In this document: one piece after another, positions 34,432 through 63,960 of the stretch
How the letters are laid out: each line of letters starts with the position of its first letter
Position numbering within the stretch: the first letter of the stretch is position 1
Assembly: GCA_900754115.1 (NCBI GenBank)
Contig: CAAEBM010000057.1
Coordinates: forward strand, 73,000 to 136,999
DNA: 64,000 bases
Origin: Bacilli bacterium
GTDB lineage: Bacteria > Bacillota_I > Bacilli_A > RFN20 > CAG-631
Direction: 5' to 3'
The notes under the pieces: model-generated
What the model saw: only the letters and a program-made list of their open reading frames with translations
Told to the model about the DNA's origin: nothing
Database searches by the model: none
Made by a program: the position numbers and the translations under genes

Positions 34432-34466
34432 TAAAAAAAAACTTCATTTTAAAGTGAAGTTTTTTA
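34432..34466. terminator. bidirectional terminator between ligA and hflX
   Basis: AAAAAAAAACTTCATTTTAAAGTGAAGTTTTTT. Confidence 0.55.
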
Positions 34467-43540: not shown

Positions 43541-45172
43541 ATGGCTACAAAAAGCAATATGCCGATCGAAGAAATTGGCACAAAAAATGCAGTTTTATTT
43601 AGTAAAGTTAGAACGACGATTGAAACGATGTTTTACCGAAACAATGTCATTGAAGTCACTTCCATGAAACAAGCCTATGAACTTGCAAAAAATGCGCATG
43701 GAACGATTATCAGTGATTTAGAAGTGGCTCATGCAAAAGAATTAGAACTCGATGAAGGATCTAAAGTTTTAATCTTTAATGACGGCGCTATAACCGGACG
43801 ACAAGCTCGTCTAAGAAGATTAGTGGATGATACTAACGTAGAATCTTTTGCATCTTTATTAAGAGAAGTAGAATTTTCTTCTAAAGATAAAGTCATGTAT
43901 CACGCTCAAGTTTATGTAGGCCTTGCACCTGAATTTATGGTGAAAGCCCATTTACTTATTCCTCAAGGATACGAAAACAATCTTTATTCTTGGTTGATGA
44001 ATTTCCAAATTGTCAATGAAGAATACACACAAATGTATAAAAATTCAAAAGTCTATGATGAAGGAGATATTTTCATTTATTCTGATCCAGATTATTATCC
44101 TTCACAATATCCAGAAGGATTGGCTTTATTTGATAGCAAACACAATTGCGCATGTTTATTAGGAATGCGCTACTTTGGCGAACATAAAAAAGGCACTTTA
44201 ACGCTTGCTTGGTCTTTGGCTGCAAGACATGGATATACTGCTTGCCATGGCGGACAAAAAAGATTTAAATTAGACCATGATAAAACAAAAATCATCAGTG
44301 TATTTGGTCTTTCTGGTTCAGGAAAATCAACGATTACTTTATCAAACCATGGTGGAAAATTAAATACCACCGTTCTTCACGATGATGCTTTTATCATTTC
44401 AAATACCGATGGTTCTTCCATTTGCTTAGAACAATCTTATTTTGATAAAACACAAGATTATCCTTTGACTAATCCACAATCAAAATATTTTGTCACCATT
44501 CAAAATGTTGGTGCAACAAAAGATGATCAAGGGCGCATTGTTCCTGTAAATGAAGACATTCGTAACGGAAATGGTCGTACGGTAAAATCAAAATTTGCTA
44601 CAAGCAATCGGGAATACAAATTCAATGAAAAGACAGATGCAATTTTCTGGATTATGAAAGATAATACTTTGCCTCCAGTTGTAAAAGTAAATTCTCCTGC
44701 TTTGGCTTCTGTAATGGGTGCAACGCTTGCAACCAAACGTTCTTCAGCTGAATATATTAAAGGAGAAGATCCCAATAAATTAGTTATTGTTCCTTATGCT
44801 AATCCTTTCCGTTTATATGAATTAGCTAAAGATTATGAAAAATTTAAATCTTTATTTGCTGATATGGGAGTGGATTGTTATATTATCAATACTGGATTTT
44901 TCTTAGATAAAAAAGTCACTCCTCAAGTCACTTTAGGCCTTATTGAAGATATTGTTCTTGAAAAAGCACAATTTGTTCCTTTTGGACCATTTAATGATTT
45001 AGAGTACTTGCCAATTACAGGTTTTGAACCAGACTTTAAAGATCAAGATTACTTACAAAATGTAAAAGCAAGATTATTAGATCGGCTCAACTATGTCTCT
45101 GAATTAGATGAATTCAATCGTTTGCCAGAAGAAGCTTTACAAGCAATCAAAAAAGTCGCAGAAGAAATTTAA
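43541..45172 (+). CDS. pckA: phosphoenolpyruvate carboxykinase (ATP)
   Basis: Kinase-1a P-loop VFGLSGSGKSTITLS. LAWSLAARHGYTACHGG region. 543 aa. AAAGGAGG RBS. Confidence 0.85.
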   Translation: MATKSNMPIEEIGTKNAVLFSKVRTTIETMFYRNNVIEVTSMKQAYELAKNAHGTIISDLEVAHAKELELDEGSKVLIFNDGAITGRQARLRRLVDDTNVESFASLLREVEFSSKDKVMYHAQVYVGLAPEFMVKAHLLIPQGYENNLYSWLMNFQIVNEEYTQMYKNSKVYDEGDIFIYSDPDYYPSQYPEGLALFDSKHNCACLLGMRYFGEHKKGTLTLAWSLAARHGYTACHGGQKRFKLDHDKTKIISVFGLSGSGKSTITLSNHGGKLNTTVLHDDAFIISNTDGSSICLEQSYFDKTQDYPLTNPQSKYFVTIQNVGATKDDQGRIVPVNEDIRNGNGRTVKSKFATSNREYKFNEKTDAIFWIMKDNTLPPVVKVNSPALASVMGATLATKRSSAEYIKGEDPNKLVIVPYANPFRLYELAKDYEKFKSLFADMGVDCYIINTGFFLDKKVTPQVTLGLIEDIVLEKAQFVPFGPFNDLEYLPITGFEPDFKDQDYLQNVKARLLDRLNYVSELDEFNRLPEEALQAIKKVAEEI

Positions 45173-45191
45173 TCAAAAAGGAGAATAAAAG

Positions 45192-46574
45192 ATGGGTGTT
45201 AAAATTGTCGATACGGCTTTAAGAGATGGTTCTCAATCTCTTATTGCAACCCGTTTAACTACAAAAGAAATTTTATCATGTGTCGGCGAAATGGATAAAG
45301 CAGGATACTACGCTTTAGAAGTTTGGGGTGGAGCTACTTTTGATGCTTGTTTACGTTTTTTAAATGAAGATCCTTGGGAACGTTTACGAGAAATAAAAAA
45401 AGTATGCAAAAATACAAAATTACAAATGTTGTTTCGCGGACAAAATATTCTCGGTTATAAACATTATGCCGATGATATCGTTGAAAAATTTGTTCAAAAA
45501 TCATTAGAAAATGGGATAGATATTATTCGTGTTTTTGATGCATTAAATGATATTCGCAACTTAAAAAGTGCGGTTCAAGCCACAAAAAAATATAAAGGTC
45601 ATTGTCAAATTGCCCTCAGTTATACCACAAGTCCAGTCCACACCGTTGATTATTATGTAAAGTTAGCAAAAGAAGTGGAAGCAATGGGAGCAGATAGTCT
45701 ATGTATTAAAGATATGGCTGGTGTTTTATTGCCAAATGATGCTTATACCTTGATTAAAAAATTAAAAGCAAACACAAAATTGCCAATTGAGCTTCATTCT
45801 CATTGTACTGGTGGAATTTGTGAAATGACTTATCAAAAAGCCATTGAAGCAGGAGTCGATATTATTGACACTGCTTTATCTCCTCTTTCAGGAGGAACTA
45901 GCCAACCTTGCACAGAAGCATTTAATTACGCTTTAGCAAATACAAAATATGATCCAAAATTAAACGTTGAACACTTAAATGCTGCATCTGCAATACTTAC
46001 AAAAATTAAAGATCAATATGTTGCAAATGGAACTTTAAATCCTAAAGCATTATCGGTCAATCCTAACATTTTAAAATATCAAGTTCCAGGTGGAATGCTT
46101 TCTAATTTAATGAGTCAATTAAAAGCTCAAGGCGCAATGGATCGTTATGATGATGTTTTAAAAGAAGTTCCTATGGTTCGAAAAGATTTAGGATATCCTC
46201 CATTAGTCACTCCATTATCCCAAATGGTCGGTACACAAGCCGTTCTCAACATCATTACGGGTGAACGATATAAAATGGTTCCTAAAGAAATCAATGATTA
46301 TCTTCACGGATTATATGGAAAAGCACCTGCTAGCATTGATCCTACGATTTTACGTCAAATCATTAAAGATGATCCTGTCATCGATTATCGTCCAGCAGAT
46401 GATATTCCCCCACAATTTGAAAAATTAAAAGAGCAATACAAGGATTTGGCAAAATCGGATGAAGATGTCTTATCCATTGCTTTATTTGAACAAGTGGCAA
46501 TTCAATTTTTAAATCGTAAATATCATCCAGCTAGTCAAGATGAAGTCGTTGAATTCAATTTATGGATAGGGTAG
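45192..46574 (+). CDS. oadA: oxaloacetate decarboxylase alpha subunit (carboxyltransferase; biotinyl domain on a separate protein)
   Basis: N-terminus MGVKIVDTALRDGSQSLIATRLTTKE (pyruvate carboxyltransferase TIM barrel). Metal ligands HSHCTGG. Confidence 0.8.
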   Translation: MGVKIVDTALRDGSQSLIATRLTTKEILSCVGEMDKAGYYALEVWGGATFDACLRFLNEDPWERLREIKKVCKNTKLQMLFRGQNILGYKHYADDIVEKFVQKSLENGIDIIRVFDALNDIRNLKSAVQATKKYKGHCQIALSYTTSPVHTVDYYVKLAKEVEAMGADSLCIKDMAGVLLPNDAYTLIKKLKANTKLPIELHSHCTGGICEMTYQKAIEAGVDIIDTALSPLSGGTSQPCTEAFNYALANTKYDPKLNVEHLNAASAILTKIKDQYVANGTLNPKALSVNPNILKYQVPGGMLSNLMSQLKAQGAMDRYDDVLKEVPMVRKDLGYPPLVTPLSQMVGTQAVLNIITGERYKMVPKEINDYLHGLYGKAPASIDPTILRQIIKDDPVIDYRPADDIPPQFEKLKEQYKDLAKSDEDVLSIALFEQVAIQFLNRKYHPASQDEVVEFNLWIG

Positions 46575-46913
46575 GTGAAGAAAATGATTTTTTCAATTGT
46601 AGAAATAAGCGATAAACCAGGACAAGCCTTTTTAGATGGTTTGATTCCTTCTTTAATTTGTATTCTTATCGTTTTTGCCATATTAATTCTCATTTATTTC
46701 ATTTTTGCTTTATTAAATAAAGTGAAGGCTTTAGATGTGAAAAAAGAAGAACCTTTAGCAACTTCATCTCATAATGAAGATGCTAAAGCAGCAATTACTT
46801 TACAAGATTTACAAGATGAAGATATGATGGTTGCGGTTTTAATCGCTTCTATTGACTATCAACAAGAAGTGAAAAAAGATGTTCGATTGGTACAAGTAAA
46901 AAGACTAAACTAG
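46575..46913 (+). CDS. oadG: oxaloacetate decarboxylase gamma-like small membrane anchor
   Basis: A single N-terminal TM helix followed by a charged tail. Position between alpha and BCCP genes. Confidence 0.55.
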   Translation: MKKMIFSIVEISDKPGQAFLDGLIPSLICILIVFAILILIYFIFALLNKVKALDVKKEEPLATSSHNEDAKAAITLQDLQDEDMMVAVLIASIDYQQEVKKDVRLVQVKRLN

Positions 46914-46924
46914 GAGGAAAAAAG

Positions 46925-47275
46925 ATGAAAATATATAAAGTAAAAGTGAATGGAAAAGTTTATGAAGTAGAATTAGATACCGTAACTGAAAACAATAAAT
47001 CCATTCAAACAGAAACAAAAAAAGAAGAAAAAATTGAAAACGCACCTACTACCAATGCTGAAGGTACACCTGTATTGTCTCCAATGCAAGGAACAATTCT
47101 TCGCGTTGATGTAGCAGTGGGTGACCATGTAAAAAAAGGTCAAATCTTAATGATTTTAGAAGCGATGAAATTAGAAAATGAAATTTTAGCTGCTCAAGAT
47201 GGTATAGTCAAAGAGATAAAAGTTACGAAAGGACAAACAGTAAATAGCAAACAAGTATTGCTAATTCTTGGGTAA
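46925..47275 (+). CDS. biotin carboxyl carrier protein (biotinyl/lipoyl domain)
   Basis: Biotinylation motif ILEAMKLENEI. 116 aa. Confidence 0.8.
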   Translation: MKIYKVKVNGKVYEVELDTVTENNKSIQTETKKEEKIENAPTTNAEGTPVLSPMQGTILRVDVAVGDHVKKGQILMILEAMKLENEILAAQDGIVKEIKVTKGQTVNSKQVLLILG

Positions 47276-47281
47276 TTGTCT

Positions 47282-48637
47282 ATGCTTGAATTAATAGAGG
47301 AATTTATCAAAAGCACAGGAATTGCCGAGTTTTTCACCAGTGGAGGTTGGAAAAATTTGGTGATGATCTTAATTGCTTTGCTACTATTGTATTTTGCGAT
47401 ATTTAAACAAGCAGAACCTTATTTACTCATTCCTATTTCCTTTGGCGTATTATTGGTCAACTTACCCCTCAGTGGAATTTTTGAAAAATCTACAGATGTC
47501 CTTTATTCTGTTGAGCAATTGGCCACAAGTACTGGAATTGGTTTAGAGAATGCAAAACAGTTTTTTACCTCTCTGGGGTTAGATATAGAGCAATCGTATA
47601 AACTTTCTCAAATTATTGAATTAGGAAAAGGAAATTTAGAGGCAATTAATGCTTTAACTTTAAATGATTTAGAACTCAAAAATTTAGTTGACTTTTTAAA
47701 TCAAGAAACACAATATTCTGGATTACTTGGCTATTTGTATTATGGAGTTCAGACAGGAATTTATCCTTGCCTCATCTTTTTAGGCATTGGAGCAACCACT
47801 GACTTTGGACCATTAATTTCTAATCCAAAGAGTATGATTTTAGGAGCTGCTGCACAAATTGGTATTTTCATTACTTTTTTAGGAGCATTATTATTAGGCT
47901 TTACTCCTCAAGAAGCCTCTTCCATTGGAATTATAGGGGGGGCAGATGGTCCTACAGCCATTTTAGTTACCAAAACCTTAGCTCCACATTTACTTTCTTC
48001 CATTTCTATTGCTGCTTATTCTTATATGGCATTGGTACCATTTATTCAACCGCCGATTATTCGTCTTTTGACAACCAAAAAAGAACGTTTAATCAAAATG
48101 GAAGAACCAACAGAAGTTTCAAAAACAAAAAGAATTTTATTCCCCATTATTGTCACAGTTGTCGTTGTCTTATTAATTCCTTCTTGTGCACCTTTAATTG
48201 GATGCCTCATGCTTGGAAATTTAATCAAAGAAACTGGTGTTGTTCCAAAACTAACGGAAGCAGCAGGAAATACAATTCTTTATTTAGTCACCATTTTACT
48301 AGGTTTATGTGTTGGAGCAACTGCAAATGCTGAAACCTTCTTATCTTTGAATACCATTAAAATCTTTGCTTTAGGTATCTTTGCTTTTGCAACTGCTACG
48401 ATGGGTGGCGTTTTAATTGGAAAGTTAATGTGCAAACTAACCAAAGGAAAAATCAATCCAATGATTGGAGCTGCTGGTGTCAGCGCAGTTCCAATGGCTG
48501 CACGAGTAGTTCATAAAGAAGGAGTAAAAGAAGATCCTAGCAACTTCTTACTCATGCATGCAATGGGTCCAAATGTAGCCGGAGTAATTGGTAGTGCGAT
48601 TGCTGCTGGTTTATTAATGTTACTATTTGGTGCATAA
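47282..48637 (+). CDS. oadB: Na+-transporting oxaloacetate decarboxylase beta subunit
   Basis: Polytopic membrane protein. GGADGPTAILV and MAARVV motifs of the OadB/GcdB/MmdB family. Confidence 0.8.
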   Translation: MLELIEEFIKSTGIAEFFTSGGWKNLVMILIALLLLYFAIFKQAEPYLLIPISFGVLLVNLPLSGIFEKSTDVLYSVEQLATSTGIGLENAKQFFTSLGLDIEQSYKLSQIIELGKGNLEAINALTLNDLELKNLVDFLNQETQYSGLLGYLYYGVQTGIYPCLIFLGIGATTDFGPLISNPKSMILGAAAQIGIFITFLGALLLGFTPQEASSIGIIGGADGPTAILVTKTLAPHLLSSISIAAYSYMALVPFIQPPIIRLLTTKKERLIKMEEPTEVSKTKRILFPIIVTVVVVLLIPSCAPLIGCLMLGNLIKETGVVPKLTEAAGNTILYLVTILLGLCVGATANAETFLSLNTIKIFALGIFAFATATMGGVLIGKLMCKLTKGKINPMIGAAGVSAVPMAARVVHKEGVKEDPSNFLLMHAMGPNVAGVIGSAIAAGLLMLLFGA

Positions 48638-48649
48638 TATGGTATAATT

Positions 48650-48680
48650 ATCGTGTTCGCAAGAACACGATTTTTATTTT
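48650..48680 (+). terminator. rho-independent terminator after oadB
   Basis: ATCGTGTTC-gcaa-GAACACGAT followed by TTTTTATTTT. Confidence 0.6.
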
Positions 48681-48693
48681 AGAAGGGATAGTT

Positions 48694-49407
48694 ATGAAAC
48701 GGATTTATTTTGATACGCTTGATTCAACCAATGATTATTGTAAAAGAAACGCTTCACTTTTACCTTCTTTTTGTGTGGTTTATACAACTCATCAAACTAA
48801 AGGAAAAGGTAGGAATCAAAGAAGTTGGGTCAGTGAACCTTTTTTAAATTTATCCCTTTCTTTATTTATCAAAAAACCAATCAATCATCCAGAATATTTA
48901 AGCATTTTAACAGCTTTAGCCGTTGTATCCACGTTAAAGGCCTTAGACATTCAACCACAAATTAAATGGCCGAATGATATTTTAATTGAAAAGAAAAAGG
49001 TTTGTGGAATTTTGCTTGAGGCTTTAAATCAAGGTAAAAAAACGGATTATATTATTGGAGTGGGAATAAATATAAACACCACTTCATTTCCTGATGAATT
49101 AAAAAAGAAAGCAACTTCTATTGCAATTTTTTTAAATCAAACCATTTCAATCAAAAAAGTATTGCGCATTTTTTTAAGAAATTGGAAAAAACTTTTTGCT
49201 ACTTTTGAAAAAAAATCTGACTTTTACATGCAAGAATATAAAAAATATTCTTGTGTTTTGCATCAAAAAATTCAATTTGAATACAATCGACAACTTTGTG
49301 AAGGCATTGTAGTTGACATTTTAAAAGATGGCTCTTTACAAATTGAAATGGAAAATAAAAAAATCACCATCAATTATGGTGAAATTTCTTTACAAAATTT
49401 TTATTGA
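48694..49407 (+). CDS. birA: biotin--protein ligase (group I BirA, no N-terminal HTH domain)
   Basis: KGKGRNQRSW biotin-binding loop. 237 aa. Confidence 0.8.
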   Translation: MKRIYFDTLDSTNDYCKRNASLLPSFCVVYTTHQTKGKGRNQRSWVSEPFLNLSLSLFIKKPINHPEYLSILTALAVVSTLKALDIQPQIKWPNDILIEKKKVCGILLEALNQGKKTDYIIGVGININTTSFPDELKKKATSIAIFLNQTISIKKVLRIFLRNWKKLFATFEKKSDFYMQEYKKYSCVLHQKIQFEYNRQLCEGIVVDILKDGSLQIEMENKKITINYGEISLQNFY

Positions 49408-49985
49408 GGATTTTTCGTTAAAGGTAAAATCTTTTTTAATCGTTGCCCAATTAATCCTGCTAAAATGCATTTTGCGATATCAAGTAAAATAAAAGGAGCA
49501 ATAACGAGTTGAAAAACTTTACCAAAAGAATAATCTAATTTCATATGGACAATAAAAATGAGATAAGCATAAATAAATCCGCAAATATAATCAATAATTA
49601 ACCCAATAAAATTGGCAATAATGGCACTAACATAAGGGTTTACTTTTATTTTTTGCAATAAACCATCAAATAGTTTTACAAATGGACAAAGAAGCAAAAA
49701 TCCAATCATAAATCCAAAGGAAGGTTGATAAACATAACTTAATCCGCCTCCCATACTAAAAATCGGAAGACCAATAAGACCTAAAAAAAGATACAAAAAG
49801 ATAATGAGCATGGCATTCCAAACCGTTGAAATTTGAGCGATTAAAAAGACAATAAATAGTTGCATTGTAAAAGAAATCGCTCCTAAAGGAAATTTAATAA
49901 AGGTAAAAATAATTAATAATGCTAATAATAATGCACTTTGAATTAGTTGTTGTGTTTTTACTCTTTTCATCGTCTTATCCTTCAT
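49401..49985 (-). CDS. bioY: biotin transporter BioY (ECF S component)
   Basis: 194-aa membrane protein with 5-6 TM helices. Convergent with and overlapping birA. Confidence 0.65.
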   Translation of the reverse strand: MKDKTMKRVKTQQLIQSALLLALLIIFTFIKFPLGAISFTMQLFIVFLIAQISTVWNAMLIIFLYLFLGLIGLPIFSMGGGLSYVYQPSFGFMIGFLLLCPFVKLFDGLLQKIKVNPYVSAIIANFIGLIIDYICGFIYAYLIFIVHMKLDYSFGKVFQLVIAPFILLDIAKCILAGLIGQRLKKILPLTKNPQ

Positions 49986-52754: not shown

Positions 52755-54410
52755 TTATGCGATTAAAGATTGACGAATAGAAGGTACATAATCGGTTGGA
52801 GGATTATTTGGATCATAATCAGAAATTGGTCCTCCACCCGTAATATTTCCAAACATTTCTCCCCAACCGCCTTGGTAATTCAAATATTCTTGGAAATCAT
52901 TGTAATGATTATAGGTATAAAAGACATAGCGATCTTCTAAATTCGTAATTGGTGTACCATCAGCATAATAGCGAGAGTATACAATTCTTGCTGCTCCTCT
53001 TGTAATTTGATATCCATCATTATAGACTTCAGCAGGATATCGAGGGTCACAATCGGTTCCTGTTGTGCCAATATCTACTTCATAATATTTTAAATCTCCA
53101 TCTATGCCATAGATTCGTGGAAGTTTTGGTTCATAAGGGTACTTATCGACATCTCCAGAAAAGAAACTATTGTTTAATCTTAAATATTCACCCCATGGGG
53201 ATGCATAAGGTTGTGGATAATTATACCGGTCTGAGCAATAATTAATTGGGACATCTCCAAATGCATAAATATAAGCAGCAACTTCTTCTAATGTGACATA
53301 AGCAGCCCCACGATAAACTTCAAATGCAAGTTCTCCTTGAGCATCATACACATAATAGGTATTTTTATCAGAAGAAAAATGAGTATAACTATTGTGAATC
53401 AACATTCCATTAGATGAAGGTTGATTAGAAGAGATTGTAGGCTCTTGATCTTGACTTTGAATATCTCCTGACATGAGATTATATTCGCTTCGATACATCG
53501 CATCAAGATAACTAGAAGCCCGGGTATAATTTTGATAAAATTCTTCTCTATTGATATTTTCATAAGGATTGTTTGCTTTAACCGTAATAGTTAAAGTATT
53601 AGAAATCATTCCATCTTTTGTTTCTAAATAAAGATTAGCCATTCCTTCACTTAATCCTTTTACTATAATATTTCCTGAACTATTTCGTTGAACCGATATG
53701 ACATTAGAATAATCTACATGGAAAGTTGCTTGCGAAGCATCTTGATAAAGGACTTGAACAATTTCTTCTTGTCCAACATCTAAAATGGTATTAGTCATGA
53801 GAATTTCAAATTCATAAATGGTTAATTGCACTTCATTGGAAACAATTTGACCATATTTTGCAACAAGGGTTACTTCTCCTGCTTTTAAAGCTGTCACTTG
53901 ATTTTTTGTTATAGAAACAAACTCTTTTCCTTTTGTTGCTTCATAAGTCAATGTCACTTCTTTTTGGGGAATCGTTGTCGCACTTAAAGTTGTTTTTTCA
54001 TTCACTTTTAGCATTGAAGATGAAATCGAAAGTTCAATTTTTTGAATTTCTGTCTTCTGTTGTACAACTCGTACTTCAATAGAATCACTATATCCATTAA
54101 CAGAAGCTGTAATATTTGTAGTTCCTAGCCGTTGTGCCGTTACTAAACCTTGATCATCAACTTTGGCAATAGCGGGAAAATCACTTTCAAAAGTGATTGT
54201 TCCACTAACGCCAATCAAATCAACATGTAATTGAAGGGTAGTTTCAAGGGTCATTTCAATGCTTTCCCCTTCACTAATTTCAATTCTTTTAACTGGATTT
54301 TCATCTGATGTATGAGAAAAAAGGTCACATGCTGAAAGGCAAACTGAAGAAAGTAAAGCAAATACAATACCTAAGCAGTGGAACCATGATTTTTTATTTT
54401 TCATTTTCAT
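52755..54410 (-). CDS. lipoprotein with Ig-like (Big_2) repeats and a C-terminal barnase-family ribonuclease domain
   Basis: Signal peptide plus lipobox MKMKNKKSWFHCLGIVFALLSSVCLSAC. The C-terminus aligns with barnase: VAAYIYAFGDVPINY / YYEVDIG / YQITRGAARIVYS / YVFYTYNHYNDF against VADYLQTYHKLPDNY / WREADIN / FRNSDRILYSS / LIYKTTDHYQTF. Confidence 0.65.
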   Translation of the reverse strand: MKMKNKKSWFHCLGIVFALLSSVCLSACDLFSHTSDENPVKRIEISEGESIEMTLETTLQLHVDLIGVSGTITFESDFPAIAKVDDQGLVTAQRLGTTNITASVNGYSDSIEVRVVQQKTEIQKIELSISSSMLKVNEKTTLSATTIPQKEVTLTYEATKGKEFVSITKNQVTALKAGEVTLVAKYGQIVSNEVQLTIYEFEILMTNTILDVGQEEIVQVLYQDASQATFHVDYSNVISVQRNSSGNIIVKGLSEGMANLYLETKDGMISNTLTITVKANNPYENINREEFYQNYTRASSYLDAMYRSEYNLMSGDIQSQDQEPTISSNQPSSNGMLIHNSYTHFSSDKNTYYVYDAQGELAFEVYRGAAYVTLEEVAAYIYAFGDVPINYCSDRYNYPQPYASPWGEYLRLNNSFFSGDVDKYPYEPKLPRIYGIDGDLKYYEVDIGTTGTDCDPRYPAEVYNDGYQITRGAARIVYSRYYADGTPITNLEDRYVFYTYNHYNDFQEYLNYQGGWGEMFGNITGGGPISDYDPNNPPTDYVPSIRQSLIA

Positions 54411-54565
54411 CTTCCTTTTTATTACTTTATTATATTATAGTAACTTTTATTATTAAATGCAAAATAAAAAAAGCCTTCAGAAGTGAAAACATATTTTTTA
54501 TATTGATAATCTATTTTTACTCCGATATAATAAAAACAATATAATCAAAAAGGAGCGAACATAAA

Positions 54566-56203
54566 ATGACTAAAAAAGTAAAAAAATATTTGTTTTTACT
54601 GCCACTTCTTTTACTCTCATCGTGTAATGACAATGCAAATTCTTCCTCTTCAAATTCTCAACACATCGATATTCCACAACAAATTTTAAACACTTTAAAG
54701 CAAGATTTAGTTTTACAAATTGATTTAGAAAAAAGTGCAGTCGATAAACAAACTGATGAAAAATCCAATGTGGAACAAACTAAAATGAAAACCTATTTAG
54801 GTAGTGAGGAATATTGGAACTATGAATATGTCGATGATTTAGCTTTAAATGAATCACATTACTTTAAAAATAGTAATGGAAATGTCGTAAAAAAAATGAT
54901 TTCAATGGATAATCAATCCATTGTTGAAGAAGAAGTTTATTTATACGGAGAAACGTTAATTTTTGATGAAGTCTACTATAATCCTTTTAAAAGTTTAACA
55001 AAAAGTCAAATCAAAAAAATCAACGATTCGACCTATACAATCTCTGATTTAAGTGATGAACAATTAGAATCTATCCATGGTCAACTGACTTTATATTATG
55101 GAATGATTGCAACCATTGATATTATTGTCGATGAAAACGGCATAGTTCAATCTTTAACCTATGAAGCTTATTATGATTATGGAGATTATTCTCCTTATCT
55201 TATTGGTTATGCTTTTAATGGTACTTTTTTAAATAAAAGTGAACTTGAAATTAAAAACATAGAAGTAAGACCGCACCAAGATTATCATGACCCTTTACAA
55301 GAAAAATTAAATTTACTGCAAAATCAAAATTATGCATTTACTTATACAAAAATTGATCCAGATGGTAAAATTGAAGATGAAATTTATGATGTCACTATCA
55401 CTTCTGATATGATTTTTGTCCATCATATTAAAAAAGGAGTGATAGATGAATATGGATGGATGAATACTGAATCAGGTTTAGTAAAATTTTCTGTAGAAGA
55501 AACAGACGATGCCATCTATTTTAATGCTTTAGGAAAAGAGAATTCATCATTAACAATCCAACATTATCTCAATGATTTTTCCTTAAGTGCTGAAGCGTTT
55601 TCTTTTAATGGCATAGATTATTATCTAGATACTGGATATGGATTTTATTCTTATTTAGATCATTTTTTACCAAATCAGTGTGTAGAGGATTTAAAAGATG
55701 CACGTGTTATTGATGATGGTTCACTTACTTTATCATTAGAAGATGACCAAATGGCTATTCATTACACAATTTCAGGAAACTTATGGGAAGCAAGTATTGT
55801 TGTCACTCAATTTAGCGATGTTCAAATTCCTTATGATTCATATATTTATCAACCTTTTACGAATCCTACTTCATGGGAAGAAATGGAAGATTTCTATAAT
55901 GAACTCCTTACTATGATGGATGAATCCTTGATTAGTGAAATTCCATTTTATTACCCAGAAAAAGGGTGGGATACTACCCTAGTGATGGCATTTATGAATA
56001 CAGCTATGCTAAGTGTAGATTTTGAAAATGAAAAAGAAGCAAAAGATGTTTGTTTTGATTATATTATGAATATGATTTTATCTGGATTTATGGTATCTGA
56101 TAATGATGTAGATACTTATGAAAAGATAGTAGGAGAGACAACTCTTGCAATCAGTGCTTATTGTAATGGAAATACTTTTAATCTTTATATTGTAGTCAAT
56201 TAA
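54566..56203 (+). CDS. lipoprotein, unknown function
   Basis: MTKKVKKYLFLLPLLLLSSC lipobox. 545 aa. AAAGGAG RBS. Confidence 0.55.
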   Translation: MTKKVKKYLFLLPLLLLSSCNDNANSSSSNSQHIDIPQQILNTLKQDLVLQIDLEKSAVDKQTDEKSNVEQTKMKTYLGSEEYWNYEYVDDLALNESHYFKNSNGNVVKKMISMDNQSIVEEEVYLYGETLIFDEVYYNPFKSLTKSQIKKINDSTYTISDLSDEQLESIHGQLTLYYGMIATIDIIVDENGIVQSLTYEAYYDYGDYSPYLIGYAFNGTFLNKSELEIKNIEVRPHQDYHDPLQEKLNLLQNQNYAFTYTKIDPDGKIEDEIYDVTITSDMIFVHHIKKGVIDEYGWMNTESGLVKFSVEETDDAIYFNALGKENSSLTIQHYLNDFSLSAEAFSFNGIDYYLDTGYGFYSYLDHFLPNQCVEDLKDARVIDDGSLTLSLEDDQMAIHYTISGNLWEASIVVTQFSDVQIPYDSYIYQPFTNPTSWEEMEDFYNELLTMMDESLISEIPFYYPEKGWDTTLVMAFMNTAMLSVDFENEKEAKDVCFDYIMNMILSGFMVSDNDVDTYEKIVGETTLAISAYCNGNTFNLYIVVN

Positions 56204-56528: not shown

Positions 56529-57215
56529 TTATATAGAATAATAGGTTGCCCATTTTCTTTTTATTTTAGATTTATCAATAACTTTAAATGATGCTCCCAG
56601 TATTCCAAATAAATAAACAGTCACTGCACATACTTTATTTTTATCATCTATGTCATTAACTACTTCCATTAATTCTTCATCATTTAGATGAATATGAGTT
56701 AATTCATGAAAATATTTCTTTTTTCGGTAATAAATAATTAATGTATATTCAACATATTCTTCAACAATACTTATCTTCATTGAACCAAGTAGCCAGTCAT
56801 ACCCATAGATGGTTTCTGTTAACGATCCTTTTGTAATTTTTTTAAAAATATTTTGTAATTTTCTAGTTCGATCTCGATACATAAAAAACTGCTTTGGTTT
56901 GCCATTTCCATCTTTATTTATGCATACAAATGTCCATTCCCATTTTTTATTTACTACAACAAAATTTTGTATAGACATTTCATTTTCAAAAAAAGAAAAA
57001 TTTGCATCATAAGATTTTGTTTCTTGGTCTTTGTCTAGACAAAGACATATTGCATTCTGTTGATTTACTTTTTTAAATTCGTTTATGGCATCTTCATTGA
57101 CATAATAATCTAATTCATTTTTAGTCAAAAATAAATCTTCCAAAGAAAAATTATTTATTTTATTCATACAAAAAAACGTTTTTAGCCATTTTTTTTCAAA
57201 ATCTTTTTTATTCAT
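56529..57215 (-). CDS. hypothetical cytoplasmic protein (228 aa)
   Basis: Complete ORF in an AT-rich accessory region. No recognisable motif. Confidence 0.4.
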   Translation of the reverse strand: MNKKDFEKKWLKTFFCMNKINNFSLEDLFLTKNELDYYVNEDAINEFKKVNQQNAICLCLDKDQETKSYDANFSFFENEMSIQNFVVVNKKWEWTFVCINKDGNGKPKQFFMYRDRTRKLQNIFKKITKGSLTETIYGYDWLLGSMKISIVEEYVEYTLIIYYRKKKYFHELTHIHLNDEELMEVVNDIDDKNKVCAVTVYLFGILGASFKVIDKSKIKRKWATYYSI

Positions 57216-57260
57216 AAAACGCTCCTTTTTAAAGAATGATAATTATTAAATGATGAAACT

Positions 57261-58595
57261 TTACACTCTATAAAATTCGGAAACCAATAGTATATTTTCT
57301 TTAATCTTATATGCTAAACACAAATAATTTGTTTTACTAGTATATTTTAAATCAAAAAAATGATTGGTATCCAAATTATAGATTGTATAATAATCGAATT
57401 TTTTTGATTCATTACTAAAAGTTATAGGAATAAAATCTTTTTCTTGATTGCTCAAAGTTGGTTTAAAATTAGAAACATCAATCAATCTATCATTATTGAA
57501 ATAAATAATGCTTTCAGATTTTAATGCATTATGATATAAAACTGTCGTTTTTTGTTCATATTCTTTTTGAATAATTGTTGCTTCACTAGGGATATCAATT
57601 TGAATTTTTTGTTCGATAAAATCAATATAAGTTGCATTGGTATTATATTCATCTGCTAAAAAAAAGCTAAAACTTCCATAAATCAATAATGCGATGGTAA
57701 AGATACTTCCCACAATGATATTGCTTTTTACTTTATATTTTTCTATATTTTTTATTCCATAAATTATTGCTGCTAAAGGGATAGGGATAAAAAGGTATAA
57801 AATCCATAAGTTTTTAGTCATATAGTAAGATATTTCAAGATTGTATTGATAACGAACATTTACAATTGTTCCAATAATGATGATAGATAAGCAAATAGAT
57901 AAAATGGAAAGCACATTCAATAATACGGTCCATCGTCCCTTTTGACTAGAATAATTAGTCGTTTCCATTAAAAAATTAAAACCTTCAAGTGCAGTATTAT
58001 TTTTTATTGATTCACAAATCTTTTTAACTAAAGGAATGGATGTTTTTTCGTACACTTCTTCATCAAAAGTTTGATTTTGAATCATATTGAAAATCTTATT
58101 TGCCATGTATTGTTGTTTTTTATAAATGGAAAGTTTTAAATTTTGTAATTTATGAAGAAAGAAGATTGCTTGTTGAAGATCATGGTTAGCAATTGCAAAT
58201 AAAAACCGATAATAATATAATGTTTTAACTTTTTTTAGACCTTTGTTTTCATTCATTAAAACTATTGCTTTTTCTTCTTGTGATGAAATCATATAAATCA
58301 AGATGAGTCGCTGAATATTAAAATAATATTCTTGCAAACATAAACTATTTTGCAAAGCATGATTGTAATAAACCTCTAAATCATCATATTTCTTTTCATC
58401 AAAGAGTGGTTTTGCTTTTTTAGATACTATTTCGCATTTAATTAAATAATACAAGATAAAAAATAAAGTTAATGAAAAAATTCCGATGATAAAAATATAT
58501 ATGTTTGTAAAGACAATTGCTAAAATACTTAATATAACCAAAAGTATTAGATAAATCATATTTAATAATTTATTTTTCATTTTTTTACATCCCAT
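57261..58595 (-). CDS. hypothetical polytopic membrane protein (444 aa)
   Basis: Two N-terminal TM helices, internal TM helices and soluble regions. No recognisable motif. Confidence 0.4.
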   Translation of the reverse strand: MGCKKMKNKLLNMIYLILLVILSILAIVFTNIYIFIIGIFSLTLFFILYYLIKCEIVSKKAKPLFDEKKYDDLEVYYNHALQNSLCLQEYYFNIQRLILIYMISSQEEKAIVLMNENKGLKKVKTLYYYRFLFAIANHDLQQAIFFLHKLQNLKLSIYKKQQYMANKIFNMIQNQTFDEEVYEKTSIPLVKKICESIKNNTALEGFNFLMETTNYSSQKGRWTVLLNVLSILSICLSIIIIGTIVNVRYQYNLEISYYMTKNLWILYLFIPIPLAAIIYGIKNIEKYKVKSNIIVGSIFTIALLIYGSFSFFLADEYNTNATYIDFIEQKIQIDIPSEATIIQKEYEQKTTVLYHNALKSESIIYFNNDRLIDVSNFKPTLSNQEKDFIPITFSNESKKFDYYTIYNLDTNHFFDLKYTSKTNYLCLAYKIKENILLVSEFYRV

Positions 58596-58665
58596 TTCTC
58601 AATATATATACCATTTTTATGGAAGTTTTTCAAGATTTTGAAATTATCACAAGTTTAATAAAGAA

Positions 58666-59145
58666 TTAATTTTCCTTTAAATATAAATATGTATAAATTT
58701 CAGGTTCTACATTTGTAATATGAACACTACAATAATCGCCTACGTCAGCCCATTCTTCTCTTCCAGTTGTAAATGGCTTTAGCCAAGTGCCATTTTCATC
58801 TTTATATGCAATCAGTGTTCCCGTTGCTCCATTGAATGCATCTTTAAAATTTATAAAATCAAAAGTATATTTATTAGAATCTTTATCAATGACATAAAAT
58901 TCCAAACTATAAAATTTATCAGCAACTAAATCATGTATAACATTTTTACCATTGGAACTTTTAAAAGAATCTTTTGTTATTTCTGTAATGTTTAAAAAAC
59001 AGGATTGTGTATTATCGTAATCATTATATCCTGTGAATAAGCCCGGAACAAAATAATTGATTCGTTTGCTGAGAGAAGTGAAATGGCAAGAACATAATAA
59101 TAAAATTAATGGAAATAAACTAGCTAGCCTAATTTTTCTATTCAT
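58666..59145 (-). CDS. hypothetical lipoprotein (159 aa)
   Basis: MNRKIRLASLFPLILLLCSC lipobox. Confidence 0.45.
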   Translation of the reverse strand: MNRKIRLASLFPLILLLCSCHFTSLSKRINYFVPGLFTGYNDYDNTQSCFLNITEITKDSFKSSNGKNVIHDLVADKFYSLEFYVIDKDSNKYTFDFINFKDAFNGATGTLIAYKDENGTWLKPFTTGREEWADVGDYCSVHITNVEPEIYTYLYLKEN

Positions 59146-59368
59146 ATTTAATTCTCCCTTTTAATTGATTAAACTGAATATTAAATATAATGATTATAAA
59201 ATTCTTTATTTCAATTAAATTATTTCACATGAAGTAATTTTTGTCAATTTTAGGTTTTTTCTTTAAAGATTAGCAGTTTTTATGTTTCCATAGTAAAATA
59301 TTAACTTGTTTTTACAAATTTTGTTCGCTTGTATTAAACAAAACTATTAAAATTTTTAATAATAAAAA

Positions 59369-59411
59369 GGTAAGCTTACAATATGAGTGTAAACTTACCT
59401 AATTTTATTTT
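59369..59411. repeat. hairpin element copy 1 (GGTAAGCTTAC...GTAAACTTACC plus T-run)
   Basis: Imperfect inverted repeat carrying the same single mismatch as copy 2. T-rich 3' side. Confidence 0.5.
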
Positions 59412-59621
59412 TAAAAACTGCTTACTATTTTACTTTTTAAAATTGCTACTAATAATATACAAAGTATTATTTGTTATTAGGAAAAGATTTTAATTAATAT
59501 AAAATCTTTGGCATATTTAACTTTCATGTGCATGTAAATCCATTTCTCTCTATGATGATTTTAGTCTTAATAATCTATCGTTTTTATAGCATTTACGAGT
59601 GACTAATTGATTATAAATTTT

Positions 59622-60077
59622 TTATTTTTCAATAATATAGGCTGTATCAAATAATATTTGATTGTTACTCAACTTCTTTAAGAATTCTTTTAATTTTATA
59701 ACACCTTTAATTTTTTGATTTTTTTGATAATCTAATCTTATCATCAAACAAACTTTATTAATCGGTGATTCATTCAAATAGAATTCTAAAAGATTTTGTA
59801 TGAAATCTATGTTGACTTTTGTTTCATTAACAACAACATAAGACTTATGTCTATTATAGTATAAATCGAAAAATTCATTTGAGTATACTCCTAAATCCCT
59901 TGCCTTTGGCGTTATTTGGTACCACATGCCCCTAATTGAAGATAATATTTCCCATTCAAAATAATAGCAATGAGGATTTTTTTTACATTCTACATCAATA
60001 AAATCATTAGCAAACTCTTTATCTTTTTTTACTTTTTGCTCAATGCATATTAAATTAATATCAGATATAACGGTCAT
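59622..60077 (-). CDS. hypothetical cytoplasmic protein (151 aa)
   Basis: Complete ORF with GAAGGAG RBS. Flanked by the two hairpin-element copies. Confidence 0.45.
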   Translation of the reverse strand: MTVISDINLICIEQKVKKDKEFANDFIDVECKKNPHCYYFEWEILSSIRGMWYQITPKARDLGVYSNEFFDLYYNRHKSYVVVNETKVNIDFIQNLLEFYLNESPINKVCLMIRLDYQKNQKIKGVIKLKEFLKKLSNNQILFDTAYIIEK

Positions 60078-60820: not shown

Positions 60821-60910
60821 TGGCGGAACAGGTGGGACTCGAACCCACGCACCAGTTGCCCAGCCTATATCCTTAGCAGGGATACCTCTTCACCACTTGA
60901 GTACTGTTCC
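60821..60910 (-). tRNA. tRNA-Ser (anticodon GCU), class II with long variable arm, CCA encoded
   Basis: Minus-strand sequence GGAACAG-TA-CTCAAGTGGTGAAGAG-G-TATCC-CTGCTAA-GGATA-long variable arm-GTGGG-TTCGAGT-CCCAC-CTGTTCC-GCCA. Cloverleaf folds; anticodon loop CU-GCU-AA. Confidence 0.85.
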
Positions 60911-61014
60911 AAGTTTGCTTTTGTATCTTACCATAAATTAAAAAATAATGCAATATTGTAGTGATAAAACATTTAATTCATGTTAGAATAGTAATGGTTT
61001 TGGAGGATACTTCA

Positions 61015-62412
61015 ATGGAACAAATAAAAGAAAAGAAAAAGAAAAATTTTTTAGATCGTTATTTTAAAATCACAGAAAAAGGATCAACCATTGGTAAAGA
61101 ATTGTTAGGTGGTTTAATTGTTTTTTTAGCAATGCTTTACATTTTACCTGTCAATACAAATATTTTAAGTGATACAGGAATGAGCAGTGGTGCTGTTTTT
61201 GCTGCAACAGCCATATGTAGTGCAATTTGTACGATTTTTATGGGAGTCTTTTCTAAATATCCTGTAGCTTTAAGTGCTGGGATGGGAATGAATGCTTTTA
61301 TTGCTTATACTGTATGTGGAACACTTGGTTATACGTGGGGAGAATCTCTAACATTAATCTTTTTTGCCGGAGTATTATTTTTTATCTTAACTTTAACTCC
61401 ATTAAGAGAAAAAATTATAAATGCTATTCCTCAAAGTTTAAAATACGCTATTAGTGCAGGACTAGGAGCATTCATCTGTTTTGTTGGTTTAAAAATGGGA
61501 GGAATTGTTGCTTCTTCAGAAAGTACATTAGTTGAACTTGGAGATTTAAGTAATCCTACCGTTTTATTAGGATTATTCGGAATTATTTTAGTTTTAGTTT
61601 TACTCACTTGCAAAAATGCTTTAATAAAAAAATTAGCAATTGTCATTGCAATGGTTTCCGTAGCAATTATCGGTTTGATTTTAGGACTTTGCAATGTGCC
61701 AGGAATGCCAAGTTTTTCTAATACGAATTTAGGAAGTGTTAGTGAAATTAAAGATACTTTTGGACAATGTTTCAATGCAAAGAATTTAAAAGTACTCGGA
61801 GATTTTAAATCATATGCTATAATGTTTTCATTGATTTTTGTCAATTTATTTGATACAACCGCTACTTTACTTGCTGTTGGAAAAGAAGCTGGAATGTTAA
61901 ATGAAAAAGGTGAATTAGTAGATGGGAAAAAAGCCATGTTAGCTGATGCAGGCGGAGCTTTTATTTGTGGGATTTTAGGTACATCTACTGTTACAAGTTT
62001 TGCTGAAAGTACTATTGGAGTAGAAAGTGGAGCACGCACAGGTTTATCTGCCACATTTACTGGACTTTTATTTGCATTAACAATTTTAATTTTCCCTGCT
62101 TTTTCAATTTTTATGCCCATAAATGGATTGACACCCATTACTTCTTTAGCTTTAGTTGCTGTTGGAGCAATGATGTTTTCAAATTTAAAACAATTAGAAT
62201 GGGAAAATAAAATCATTGTATTTGCTTCTTTTATTACCGTTATTATGATGTTATTGACATATTCTGTTTCCGATGGTTTAGGACTTGGATTAATCACTTA
62301 TAGTTTAATGATGATTTTTGCTGGAAAAGGAAAAGAAGTTCATCCATTTGTTTATGGTATTTCTGCATTCTTTGTATTAAACTATGTTTTAAGTACTACT
62401 GTATTTAAGTAA
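61015..62412 (+). CDS. AzgA/PbuG-family purine (guanine/hypoxanthine) permease, NCS2-related
   Basis: 12-TM transporter. N-terminus MEQIKEKKKKNFLDRYFKITEKGSTIGKELLGGLIVFLAMLYILPVN is typical of AzgA-like permeases. GGAGGA RBS. Confidence 0.7.
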   Translation: MEQIKEKKKKNFLDRYFKITEKGSTIGKELLGGLIVFLAMLYILPVNTNILSDTGMSSGAVFAATAICSAICTIFMGVFSKYPVALSAGMGMNAFIAYTVCGTLGYTWGESLTLIFFAGVLFFILTLTPLREKIINAIPQSLKYAISAGLGAFICFVGLKMGGIVASSESTLVELGDLSNPTVLLGLFGIILVLVLLTCKNALIKKLAIVIAMVSVAIIGLILGLCNVPGMPSFSNTNLGSVSEIKDTFGQCFNAKNLKVLGDFKSYAIMFSLIFVNLFDTTATLLAVGKEAGMLNEKGELVDGKKAMLADAGGAFICGILGTSTVTSFAESTIGVESGARTGLSATFTGLLFALTILIFPAFSIFMPINGLTPITSLALVAVGAMMFSNLKQLEWENKIIVFASFITVIMMLLTYSVSDGLGLGLITYSLMMIFAGKGKEVHPFVYGISAFFVLNYVLSTTVFK

Positions 62413-62425
62413 AAGAGGGATATTT

Positions 62426-63031
62426 ATGAAAAAGAAATATTTATCATTTTCATTACTTGCTTCATTTTTATTACTTTTAGGTGGATGTGATTCGTCTAAA
62501 GAAGAAATTTGTGACATGGAAAAAGTTCAGTATGTTGAACAACTTATTGCTGATTTACCCACACCATCTACAGATAATGAAGTAGTTTCAACCATTTTTG
62601 ATGCAAAAGAAGCATATGACGACTTAAATAAAAAAGAAAAAGATATGGTGGAAAACTACACATCCCTTGAATCTTGTATTGAAGAAATTTACTCATTTGT
62701 CACCGAAAATGGAAGTTATTCAACAAAATATGAAGTCGCTTTGTATATCTTTTTATATGATGATTTACCTAGTAATTATATTACAAAATCGGAAGCAGAA
62801 GCTTTAGGTTGGAACGGTGGAAGTTTGTGGAATTATGCTGAAGGTAAAAGCATTGGTGGCGATCGTTTTTATAACCGAGAAGGATTATTACCAAATGGTG
62901 TTTATTATGAATGCGATATCGGTTATAAAGGAGAAAATTCTAGAAATGCCTTTAGAATTGTTTATAGTTTAATCAGTGATACTGTTTATTATACTCATGA
63001 CCATTATAGTAGCTTTGAACAACTTTATTAA
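62426..63031 (+). CDS. lipoprotein with a barnase-family (guanyl-specific microbial RNase) catalytic domain
   Basis: Lipobox LLLLGGC. The C-terminal 105 aa align with barnase: LPSNYITKSEAEALGW / GKSIGGDRFYNREGLLP / RNAFRIVYS...YYTHDHYSSF against LPDNYITKSEAQALGW / GKSIGGDIFSNREGKLP / RNSDRILYSSDWLIYKTTDHYQTF. The catalytic Lys, Glu, Arg and His are conserved. Confidence 0.8.
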   Translation: MKKKYLSFSLLASFLLLLGGCDSSKEEICDMEKVQYVEQLIADLPTPSTDNEVVSTIFDAKEAYDDLNKKEKDMVENYTSLESCIEEIYSFVTENGSYSTKYEVALYIFLYDDLPSNYITKSEAEALGWNGGSLWNYAEGKSIGGDRFYNREGLLPNGVYYECDIGYKGENSRNAFRIVYSLISDTVYYTHDHYSSFEQLY

Positions 63032-63051: not shown

Positions 63052-63960
63052 ATGAGTAAAATTTTTGTGGTAGGCAGTATTAATGTCGATTATGTCATGG
63101 AAATTTCTCATTTACCTCAATTAGGAGAAACACTTCCTGGAACTTCTTTTTTGACAAATTTTGGAGGAAAAGGAGCCAATCAAGCAGTTGCTTTAGCAAA
63201 GCAAGAAGAAGACGTCTATTTCATTGCTAATGTTGGAAATGACTCAATAGGACAAGAAGCGATTGAAAATTTAAATCAATACGGCGTTCATACTGAATTT
63301 ATTCAAAAAATAGATAATCAAACCACAGGGGCAGCACTGATTTTAGTAGAAAATCATAATAATCGCATTTTATTACACGCAGGAGCTAATCAAAAAATGC
63401 AACAGAACCAAATTTTAGAAGCATTTAAATTAGCTAATCCTGAGGATTATCTTTTAGTGCAATTAGAAATTAATATGGATATGGTTTATTATGCAATCCA
63501 AGAAGCAAAGAAAAGAAAAATGCATGTAGTCATGAATCCTGCTCCTGCACAAAGTATTGCTGACAAAATACTTGATTTAATCGATATTTTAATTGTAAAT
63601 GAAATTGAATGCAAAATGTTAACTGGGTATGATTATACTCAAGAAAATGAACTCAATGCTTTTTTAAAAAATCATTCCATTTCTATTTTTATTGTAACAT
63701 TAGGCGAAAAAGGAGCGCATGTATTTACTTTAAACAATAAATACCAATTCGATGCACACCTTGTTCATGTAAAGGATACTACTGCAGCAGGAGATACTTT
63801 TATTGGTGCTTTCTTATCCGAATGGATACATAGTAATGATTTGAAAAAAAGTGCTCAATATGCAATTATAGCTAGTGCTTTAAGTTGCATGACATTGGGA
63901 GCACAAAAAAGTATTAAAAATCGTCAAGAAATTCAAAAATATATTTTAACTCATCTTTAA
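63052..63960 (+). CDS. rbsK: ribokinase (PfkB family)
   Basis: MSKIFVVGSINVDYV, NFGGKGANQAVA, DTTAAGDTFIGAF (anion hole and catalytic Asp). AAGGAGG RBS. Confidence 0.85.
   Translation: MSKIFVVGSINVDYVMEISHLPQLGETLPGTSFLTNFGGKGANQAVALAKQEEDVYFIANVGNDSIGQEAIENLNQYGVHTEFIQKIDNQTTGAALILVENHNNRILLHAGANQKMQQNQILEAFKLANPEDYLLVQLEINMDMVYYAIQEAKKRKMHVVMNPAPAQSIADKILDLIDILIVNEIECKMLTGYDYTQENELNAFLKNHSISIFIVTLGEKGAHVFTLNNKYQFDAHLVHVKDTTAAGDTFIGAFLSEWIHSNDLKKSAQYAIIASALSCMTLGAQKSIKNRQEIQKYILTHL

Follow-up and report, generated by a model that had tools for sequence, protein, structure and literature searches.

Gene and domain organization

The window analysed here, a 64,000-nucleotide stretch of contig CAAEBM010000057.1 (positions 73,000 to 136,999; assembly GCA_900754115.1, a Bacilli bacterium), carries a gene for a predicted lipoprotein at 52755-54410 in which an immunoglobulin (Ig)-like stalk is joined to a conserved C-terminal module, the core of which is in all likelihood a divergent homolog of the ribonuclease (RNase) barnase. 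The protein represents a large family of predicted surface RNases for which we propose a nutritional role. Its features, together with those of a second barnase locus in the window, are given in Table 1. The open reading frame (ORF), described in an earlier reading of the sequence alone (hereafter the sequence-only reading), is present with the extent and strand described there, and the identical protein was found on five metagenome contigs. An AGGAAG ribosome-binding motif, identified by sequence inspection, lies flush against the first ATG and 6 nt ahead of the second; because only the latter has the usual spacing, the true start is probably Met3, and the gene is called as a 549-aa product in sister contigs and within the same 90% cluster.

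Table 1. Coordinates of the family gene, its predicted parts and the second barnase locus (window positions; fractions are counts among diverse family sequences).
Feature	Position	Strand	Remarks
Family gene, lipoprotein ORF	52755..54410	minus	551 aa; probably 549 aa from Met3 (54404)
Promoter-like hexamers TTTGCA-18-TATAAT and TTAATA-16-TATAAT	54429..54463	minus	in the 155-bp divergent intergenic region upstream
Signal peptide with putative lipobox L25-S-A-C28	54327..54410	minus	read from the sequence; Cys28 at 54327-54329
Ig-like spacer, residues 38-279	53574..54299	minus	Pfam Big_2, PDB Hoc-like and PHROGs matches
N-terminal subdomain of the module, residues 280-364 (85 aa)	53319..53573	minus	two helices and a three-stranded sheet (model)
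Barnase-like RNase core, residues 365-511	52878..53318	minus	hhalign, Foldseek, residue conservation
R395 (barnase K27 equivalent)	53226-53228	minus	Lys in most relatives
E427 (barnase E60)	53130-53132	minus	124/132
E444 (barnase E73, general base)	53079-53081	minus	132/132
D446 (barnase D75, buried)	53073-53075	minus	132/132
R471 (barnase R83)	52998-53000	minus	132/132
R475 (barnase R87)	52986-52988	minus	132/132
H502 (barnase H102, general acid)	52905-52907	minus	131/132
Gly-rich C-terminal tail, residues 512-551 (40 aa)	52758..52877	minus	GGWGEMFGNITGGG; no barnase counterpart
Xan_ur_permease, NCS2-type nucleobase permease family	60961..62412	plus	PF00860 E=7.8e-27; ends 13 bp before the paralog
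Canonical barnase-family lipoprotein (paralog), 201 aa	62426..63031	plus	PF00545 56.3 bits, E=4.9e-15; PDB barnase E=1.7e-20
Ribokinase-like PfkB kinase	63052..63960	plus	PF00294 E=1.4e-52; starts 20 bp after the paralog

The N terminus (MKMKNKKSWFHCLGIVFALLSSVCLSAC) is Lys-rich and hydrophobic and leads into LSAC, which corresponds to the lipobox noted in the sequence-only reading; the mature protein would begin at Cys28, which would carry the lipid. A lipobox-like motif recurs in 109 of 131 diverse family representatives and in all full-length members of the family alignment. By sequence the protein thus combines a lipobox cysteine with a C-terminal nuclease-type domain, the make-up of a surface nuclease lipoprotein, with its localization being a prediction. 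The promoter-like hexamers upstream of the gene are consensus matches in AT-rich DNA and constitute weak evidence for a promoter.

The Big_2-like Ig region that had been placed upstream of the RNase domain was recovered by several searches. Matches were obtained to Pfam Big_2 (residues 56-109, E=7.5e-7), to a Hoc-like Ig protein in the PDB (residues 38-202, E=5e-4) and to Ig-type structural proteins in PHROGs (residues 71-185, E=1.8e-12, and weakly residues 218-279, E=7e-4), the PHROGs matches of this protein being confined to the Ig-like region. These matches support two Ig-like domains and, tentatively, a third; between the segments, each of ~80 aa, there is hardly any similarity (z=2.5, 1.5 and 0). 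In the family as a whole the region ahead of the module ranges from 1 to 707 aa (median 223) and consists of unrelated Ig-like or low-complexity stalks.

The conserved C-terminal unit comprises 272 aa (residues 280-551). The sequence-only reading had aligned about 150 C-terminal residues with barnase; the alignment held, whereas the conserved unit proved considerably longer. The structure of the whole module was predicted with a predicted template modelling score (pTM) of 0.86, model confidence being low at module residues 242-253. Its N-terminal subdomain is kept across the family and was modelled with block predicted local distance difference test (pLDDT) values of 82-97, and no relative of it was found by Pfam, PDB sequence search or Foldseek. 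Relative to barnase, the core carries inserts of ~16 and ~11 aa. In the Gly-rich tail, residues G, W, F, G and N are almost invariant in the family, and Pfam, PDB sequence and Foldseek searches returned no known match to it. More than half of the strongly conserved module is without a barnase counterpart, at a level of conservation equal to that of the core. Presumably the N-terminal subdomain, the two inserts and the Gly-rich tail extend the RNA-binding surface.

Homology of the module core to barnase

The paralog at 62426-63031 offered a direct comparison within the window: BLASTP aligned residues 365-508 of the family protein with it at E=2e-6, and alignment of the family profile against it with hhalign gave a probability of 96.3%. 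Against a profile built from 24 barnase-family sequences, the family profile reached a probability of 98.5% (E=2.6e-15, 111 columns). An AlphaFold model of the cropped core (residues 362-515; mean pLDDT 70.9, pTM 0.71) adopts the barnase alpha+beta fold, a helix packed on an antiparallel sheet, in keeping with the fold that the sequence-only reading had expected. When this model was used as a Foldseek query, the top 14 PDB matches were exclusively barnase and binase (probability 0.80-0.99, TM-score 0.53-0.62 over the whole barnase chain), and the next ones, at E>=3, were noise. With the whole module as query, RNase Sa and Sa3 recurred as weak matches (E 1.3-5, TM-score ~0.3-0.4 on the RNase, ~20% identity). 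NCBIfam gave no match to the protein.

Taken together, the profile-profile alignment, the fold match limited to barnase and binase and the conserved catalytic Glu, Arg-x3-Arg and His bear out the central proposal of the sequence-only reading, an Ig-spaced lipoprotein with a barnase-like end. Judging from the alignments and the model, the module core is very probably a true but divergent barnase homolog, with its predicted catalytic set intact. The family is a member of the barnase superfamily, yet by Pfam's criterion it lies outside PF00545 as currently modelled.

Conservation of the active site

Residue conservation was counted in 132 diverse sequences, each representing a separate 50%-identity cluster. 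The motif positions named in the sequence-only reading were all located as described, with E444 in YYEVDIG, R471 and R475 in TRGAARIVYS and H502 in YNHYNDF; the equivalents of barnase E73, D75, R83, R87 and H102 are invariant or nearly so (Table 1), as is Y503, the equivalent of barnase Y103 (132/132).

Two semi-conserved cysteines were considered separately. A disulfide formed only outside the cell was rejected as a general safety device, because the cysteine pair co-occurs loosely (both in 35 sequences, one only in 48 and neither in 49; odds ratio 3.6, not corrected for phylogeny) and the protein studied here has one.

Size and distribution of the family

With the module as query, 2005 clusters at 90% identity were retrieved, the best 120 being 58-83% identical to it across 94-100% of its length; hardly any of these 120 has a Pfam domain in that region. 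An exhaustive search of 50%-identity cluster representatives yielded 301 proteins, 173 of them at E<=1e-30, in which the module is almost always complete and C-terminal. At the level of genomes, the module was found in 438 of ~185,600 species representatives. All 80 listed loci derive from uncultured or metagenome-derived Bacilli and Clostridia/Eubacteriales, many with titles referring to animal gut or faecal material, and the Bacilli among them are Mollicutes-like organisms, Acholeplasmatales, Erysipelotrichaceae and Coprobacillus sp. CAG:698. The module is ~60% identical between Bacilli and Clostridia, and related loci lie on chromosomes or on contigs of ~1 Mb. Where NCBI names the members at all, the name is "hypothetical protein", and no publication on the family was found among the open-access literature.

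Absence of barstar from the family loci

Barnase and barstar are the textbook enzyme-inhibitor pair. The observation of the sequence-only reading that the window holds no barstar-like ORF withstood searches of several kinds: a phmmer search of every stop-to-stop window ORF of at least 40 aa, with a barstar sequence as query, gave a best E of 1.2; a hidden Markov model (HMM) of three barstar sequences, used together with jackhmmer, recovered five positive controls (E<=1e-43) and otherwise nothing better than E=1.8; a Pfam scan of 63 window ORFs of 60-260 aa contained no barstar in the best 25 of 76 families; and per-protein Pfam scans of the free-standing small window ORFs contained none either. 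The per-protein scans and the custom HMM back up the Pfam result for the 25 best families. The barstar probes, including the HMM and jackhmmer, were likewise negative in the 20-kb sister contigs and in ~80 family loci.

In two ordinary barnase homologs from other Clostridia (loci L091-L095), a PF01337 barstar gene lies 4 and 18 bp downstream. Because ordinary barnase homologs of related gut bacteria have an adjacent barstar, its absence here is meaningful, and we conclude that the local absence of barstar is a real feature of the family and of this lineage's canonical barnase. According to the comparative genomics of Zhang et al. (2012, PMC3482391), barnase-barstar pairs are widely distributed and barstar is specific to barnase-type domains; in the same work barnase is described as lethal when barstar is lacking.

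The downstream region of the family gene offers no substitute that recurs. In the window the next gene is convergent, lies 77 bp away and encodes a pyrophosphate (PPi)-dependent phosphofructokinase (NF010675, 499 bits), and a convergent downstream gene is found for 34 of 82 family genes. A small co-directional ORF within 150 bp downstream occurs in only 5 of the 82, and these ORFs form no family. PADLOC gave no match for the 52755-54410 protein.

The canonical barnase paralog and its surroundings

The second barnase-family lipoprotein, which the sequence-only reading had noted 8 kb away, is readily identified as such by Pfam and PDB sequence searches (Table 1), has the lipobox L18-G-G-C21 and keeps the equivalents of K27, E73, R83, R87 and H102. 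It is closely flanked by genes for the nucleobase permease and the ribokinase-like kinase, the latter scoring slightly below the cutoff of the ribokinase model TIGR02152 (291.4 against 299.65 bits). The permease-barnase pair is retained, at 64% and 54% identity, in relatives with rearranged surroundings (L096, L097, L098), again with no adjacent barstar. A purine riboswitch upstream of the permease-barnase-ribokinase genes was sought and rejected, the search giving only a tRNA-Ser.

Between the family gene and these genes, positions 56529-60077 and 60821-60910 form the lowest-GC part of the window (0.23-0.24), lie beside tRNA-Ser(GCT) and might be an island. This stretch holds four unannotated minus-strand genes, encoding a 228-aa protein, a 444-aa multi-pass membrane protein, a 159-aa lipoprotein and a 151-aa protein, all of which are also present in the sister contigs L001, L089 and L090.

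Gene neighbourhoods

Clustering of gene neighbours took in 81 family loci. Among the Clostridia, a SurE nucleotidase was found in 24 of the 81, mostly directly downstream and convergent, tandem NrnA-like DHH/DHHA1 genes in 23, SNase proteins in 12 (as an SNase lipoprotein adjoining the family gene) and thymidine kinase in 10. One arrangement consists entirely of co-directional genes for an ABC permease, a substrate-binding lipoprotein, an SNase lipoprotein, a ~1000-aa protein and the family lipoprotein. The large unannotated protein of this arrangement (951-1157 aa; L007, L008, L052 and L085, all Clostridia) is encoded on the same strand between the SNase lipoprotein and the family gene, and its L008 copy has a weak aBig_2 match; this protein may belong, as a third member, to a group of surface proteins that degrade nucleic acids. 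In one Bacilli locus an Endonuclease_1 gene lies ~5 kb away.

On the other side of the divergent intergenic region in the window, at 155 bp from the family gene, a plus-strand gene (54566-56203) encodes a 545-aa predicted lipoprotein (LLLSSC) that matched nothing in Pfam, NCBIfam or PADLOC. It is conserved beside the family gene in L006, the closest relative (E=3e-250), and a copy was also found in L034 (E=3.6e-82) but in none of the other family loci.

Two further regions of the window were noted. On the minus strand at 34464-35715, a 166-aa ORF (35215-35715) covers only two domains of an HflX-type GTPase, the N-terminal one (GTP-bdg_N) and the middle one (GTP-bdg_M), and is followed, after a gap of ~110 bp, by a separate 212-aa ORF (34464-35102). 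The HflX gene may be split or frameshifted here, or the assembly may be in error. Positions 43541-49985 encode a Na+-pumping oxaloacetate-decarboxylase set (carboxyltransferase alpha, biotin-carrier and beta subunits) together with a phosphoenolpyruvate-carboxykinase-like protein, a BirA-type biotin ligase and a BioY transporter. This set and the PPi-dependent phosphofructokinase suggest an energy-sparing fermentative lifestyle.

Proposed role and alternative explanations

From these features we propose the following course of events. The protein would be exported by the Sec system as an unfolded chain and processed by lipoprotein signal peptidase, the lipid on Cys28 would anchor it at the external side of the cytoplasmic membrane, and the two or three Ig-like domains would act as a stalk that holds the 272-aa catalytic module away from the membrane. 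The core would be a divergent barnase-type, metal-independent, transphosphorylating endoribonuclease in which, by analogy with barnase, the general base would be Glu444 and the general acid His502, the phosphate would be bound by Arg471, Arg475 and Arg395, and Glu427 would lie in the base-recognition loop. Extracellular RNA in the gut would thereby be degraded, and its nucleotides, bases and ribose salvaged by the producer, an uncultured low-GC gut bacterium. With no barstar-type inhibitor beside the gene, the cell would depend for its own protection on the chain leaving it unfolded.

On the strength of sequence and model, the family protein is probably an active RNase. We infer, with a probability of roughly 60%, that it serves nutrition as a surface RNase harvesting environmental RNA, the activity and the surface exposure being as much inferred as the role. 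Evidence for the nutritional reading comes from the SNase, SurE and NrnA-like context of the family genes in Clostridia, the Endonuclease_1 gene of one Bacilli locus, the permease-barnase-kinase set of the window, and an established functional analogue in Mollicutes, whose membrane-nuclease lipoproteins (such as MnuA and the SNase-type MAG_5040) are thought to supply nucleotide precursors (PMC11729948, PMC12115388, PMC3585158). On the question raised by the sequence-only reading, whether such proteins are nutritional enzymes or toxins, the evidence thus favours the former.

Several results weigh against this interpretation. At the level of homology, the cropped-core Foldseek matches have E-values of 0.011-0.098 and root-mean-square deviations of 5.4-6.5 A on a model of pLDDT 70.9; the whole 272-aa module gave no significant Foldseek match (best E=1.0); the family HMM found no match among PDB sequences at E<=10; and the plain PF00545 profile, the first check that had been suggested for the sequence-only reading, failed to pass, scoring 14.8 bits (E=0.043) against a gathering cutoff of 24 and covering residues 438-508 only. 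At the active site, the K27 position varies (K in 91, R in 12, T in 10 and N in 8 of the 132 sequences), which justifies the earlier doubt over this residue: the family Lys sits one residue off the hhalign register, K or R is found within two positions on either side in 114/132, and the 52755-54410 protein, like its closest relatives, has Arg there (Arg395). In the guanine loop, N58 and R59 have given way to Pro and Tyr in the alignment, and for this reason the base specificity is not predictable. A barstar could lie elsewhere in the genome, beyond the 64 kb searched. As to gene context, the nuclease and salvage genes are limited to 29 Clostridia loci and could represent synteny inherited within one or two clades; unspecific neighbours occur there as well (a cytoplasmic ExoIII-like repair enzyme, an M32 peptidase, GH77 and a sugar-type binding protein); no conserved neighbour unites the window's own group, the 32 low-GC Bacilli loci; and the immediate neighbours of the family gene, the phosphofructokinase and the lipoprotein of unknown function, say nothing on function.

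Were the barnase likeness convergent or spurious, the module would be no RNase at all, as the sub-threshold PF00545 score, the lack of a PDB match by HMM and the non-significant whole-module Foldseek search might be taken to indicate. We attribute the low PF00545 score to divergence rather than to missing homology; the profile-profile E-value of 2.6e-15, the retrieval of nothing but barnase and binase by the cropped model, and the presence in register of six catalytic or structural residues, five of them invariant and H502 kept in 131/132, make this explanation very improbable. The same invariance bears on the proposal that the core has been re-purposed for another substrate or role, be it structured RNA, nucleic acid of the biofilm matrix, cyclic or linear oligonucleotide signals, or mainly binding. 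Such a change would fit the large part of the module that is conserved like the core and has no barnase counterpart, the base-recognition loop in which Pro and Tyr replace N58 and R59, and the canonical barnase lipoprotein 8 kb away, with which the family protein may not be redundant. However, the invariance of the full constellation for RNA transphosphorylation speaks for catalysis on an RNA-like phosphodiester with a 2'-OH, the E60 equivalent is kept in 124/132, and the informative gene contexts point to general nucleic-acid breakdown, so that we consider a re-purposed core doubtful.

We think it similarly improbable that the protein is an offensive RNase, displayed on or shed from the surface as an antibacterial effector or as an enzyme directed at the host, with a cytotoxic or immune-modulating effect; barnase-type polymorphic toxins and the cytotoxic binase and RNase Sa3 would be the models. 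In its favour, toxins commonly contain the barnase fold, and barnase itself becomes lethal when barstar is lacking (PMC3482391); the catalytic residues are preserved; the weak structural matches include RNase Sa3, designated a cytotoxic microbial ribonuclease in the PDB; and a membrane-associated nuclease of Mycoplasma is reported to cleave host tRNAs (PMC12848938). Against it, no immunity gene accompanies the family, barstar being absent from ~80 loci where the controls have it 4-18 bp downstream, and no small downstream ORF recurs. The conserved C-terminus behind a variable N-terminus is the reverse of the design of polymorphic toxins, the export signal is that of a lipoprotein, no T6SS, T7SS, RHS or other trafficking or translocation domain was found, and PADLOC gave no match.

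A further reading would hold that the family is a barstar-independent barnase lineage in which the ~125 extra conserved residues and the two inserts form a built-in safety device in place of the inhibitor, by allowing folding or activation only outside the cell, or re-target the enzyme to a specific class of extracellular gut RNA; we offer this as a speculation and consider it rather improbable. If it were true, a distinct and widespread enzyme class of uncultured gut Firmicutes would have been missed by annotation. If the family is active, small-genome gut bacteria would have a surface RNase among their tools for scavenging nucleic acids, and there would be a natural setting in which to examine how an RNase with lethal potential can be produced without barstar. 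The enzyme class itself is familiar; of interest are how large the unannotated family is, that it is confined to uncultured gut Firmicutes and that it seems to do without barstar. A profile built from the family would annotate thousands of proteins that are now called hypothetical.

Comparison with known systems

The family can be summed up as a large, unannotated, barstar-less and, by prediction, lipid-anchored offshoot of barnase that evolves separately and has substantial extra conserved structure. It shares with barnase and binase a homologous core (98.5% profile-profile probability), the predicted helix-plus-antiparallel-sheet fold, the catalytic Glu, Arg-x3-Arg and His, the buried Asp-Arg pair and, by prediction, export from the cell. 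It differs from them in its 85-aa subdomain, 40-aa tail and two inserts, in the shifted or replaced K27 and in the loss of N58 and R59; moreover, the family proteins are predicted to be lipid-anchored on an Ig-like stalk whereas barnase is freely secreted, and they have no adjacent barstar, in contrast to the two ordinary barnase homologs. RNase Sa and Sa3 of Streptomyces, guanyl-specific enzymes of the same superfamily, follow the same catalytic logic, but they are secreted proteins of 96-99 aa, and the matches to them are insignificant alone.

The Tox-Barnase/Imm-barstar polymorphic toxins (PMC3482391) likewise carry a barnase-clade RNase of the BECR fold at the C-terminus of an exported multidomain protein; in contrast, the family has neither an immunity gene nor toxin-trafficking domains, combines its conserved C-terminus with a variable N-terminus, and bears a lipoprotein signal. 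The membrane nucleases of Mollicutes resemble the family in being lipoprotein-anchored in bacteria of limited metabolic capacity, and some family loci adjoin an SNase lipoprotein. Their folds are unrelated, however, being metal-dependent, sugar-nonspecific enzymes of the SNase or EEP type as opposed to a metal-independent barnase-type RNase, and the resemblance is a functional analogy only.

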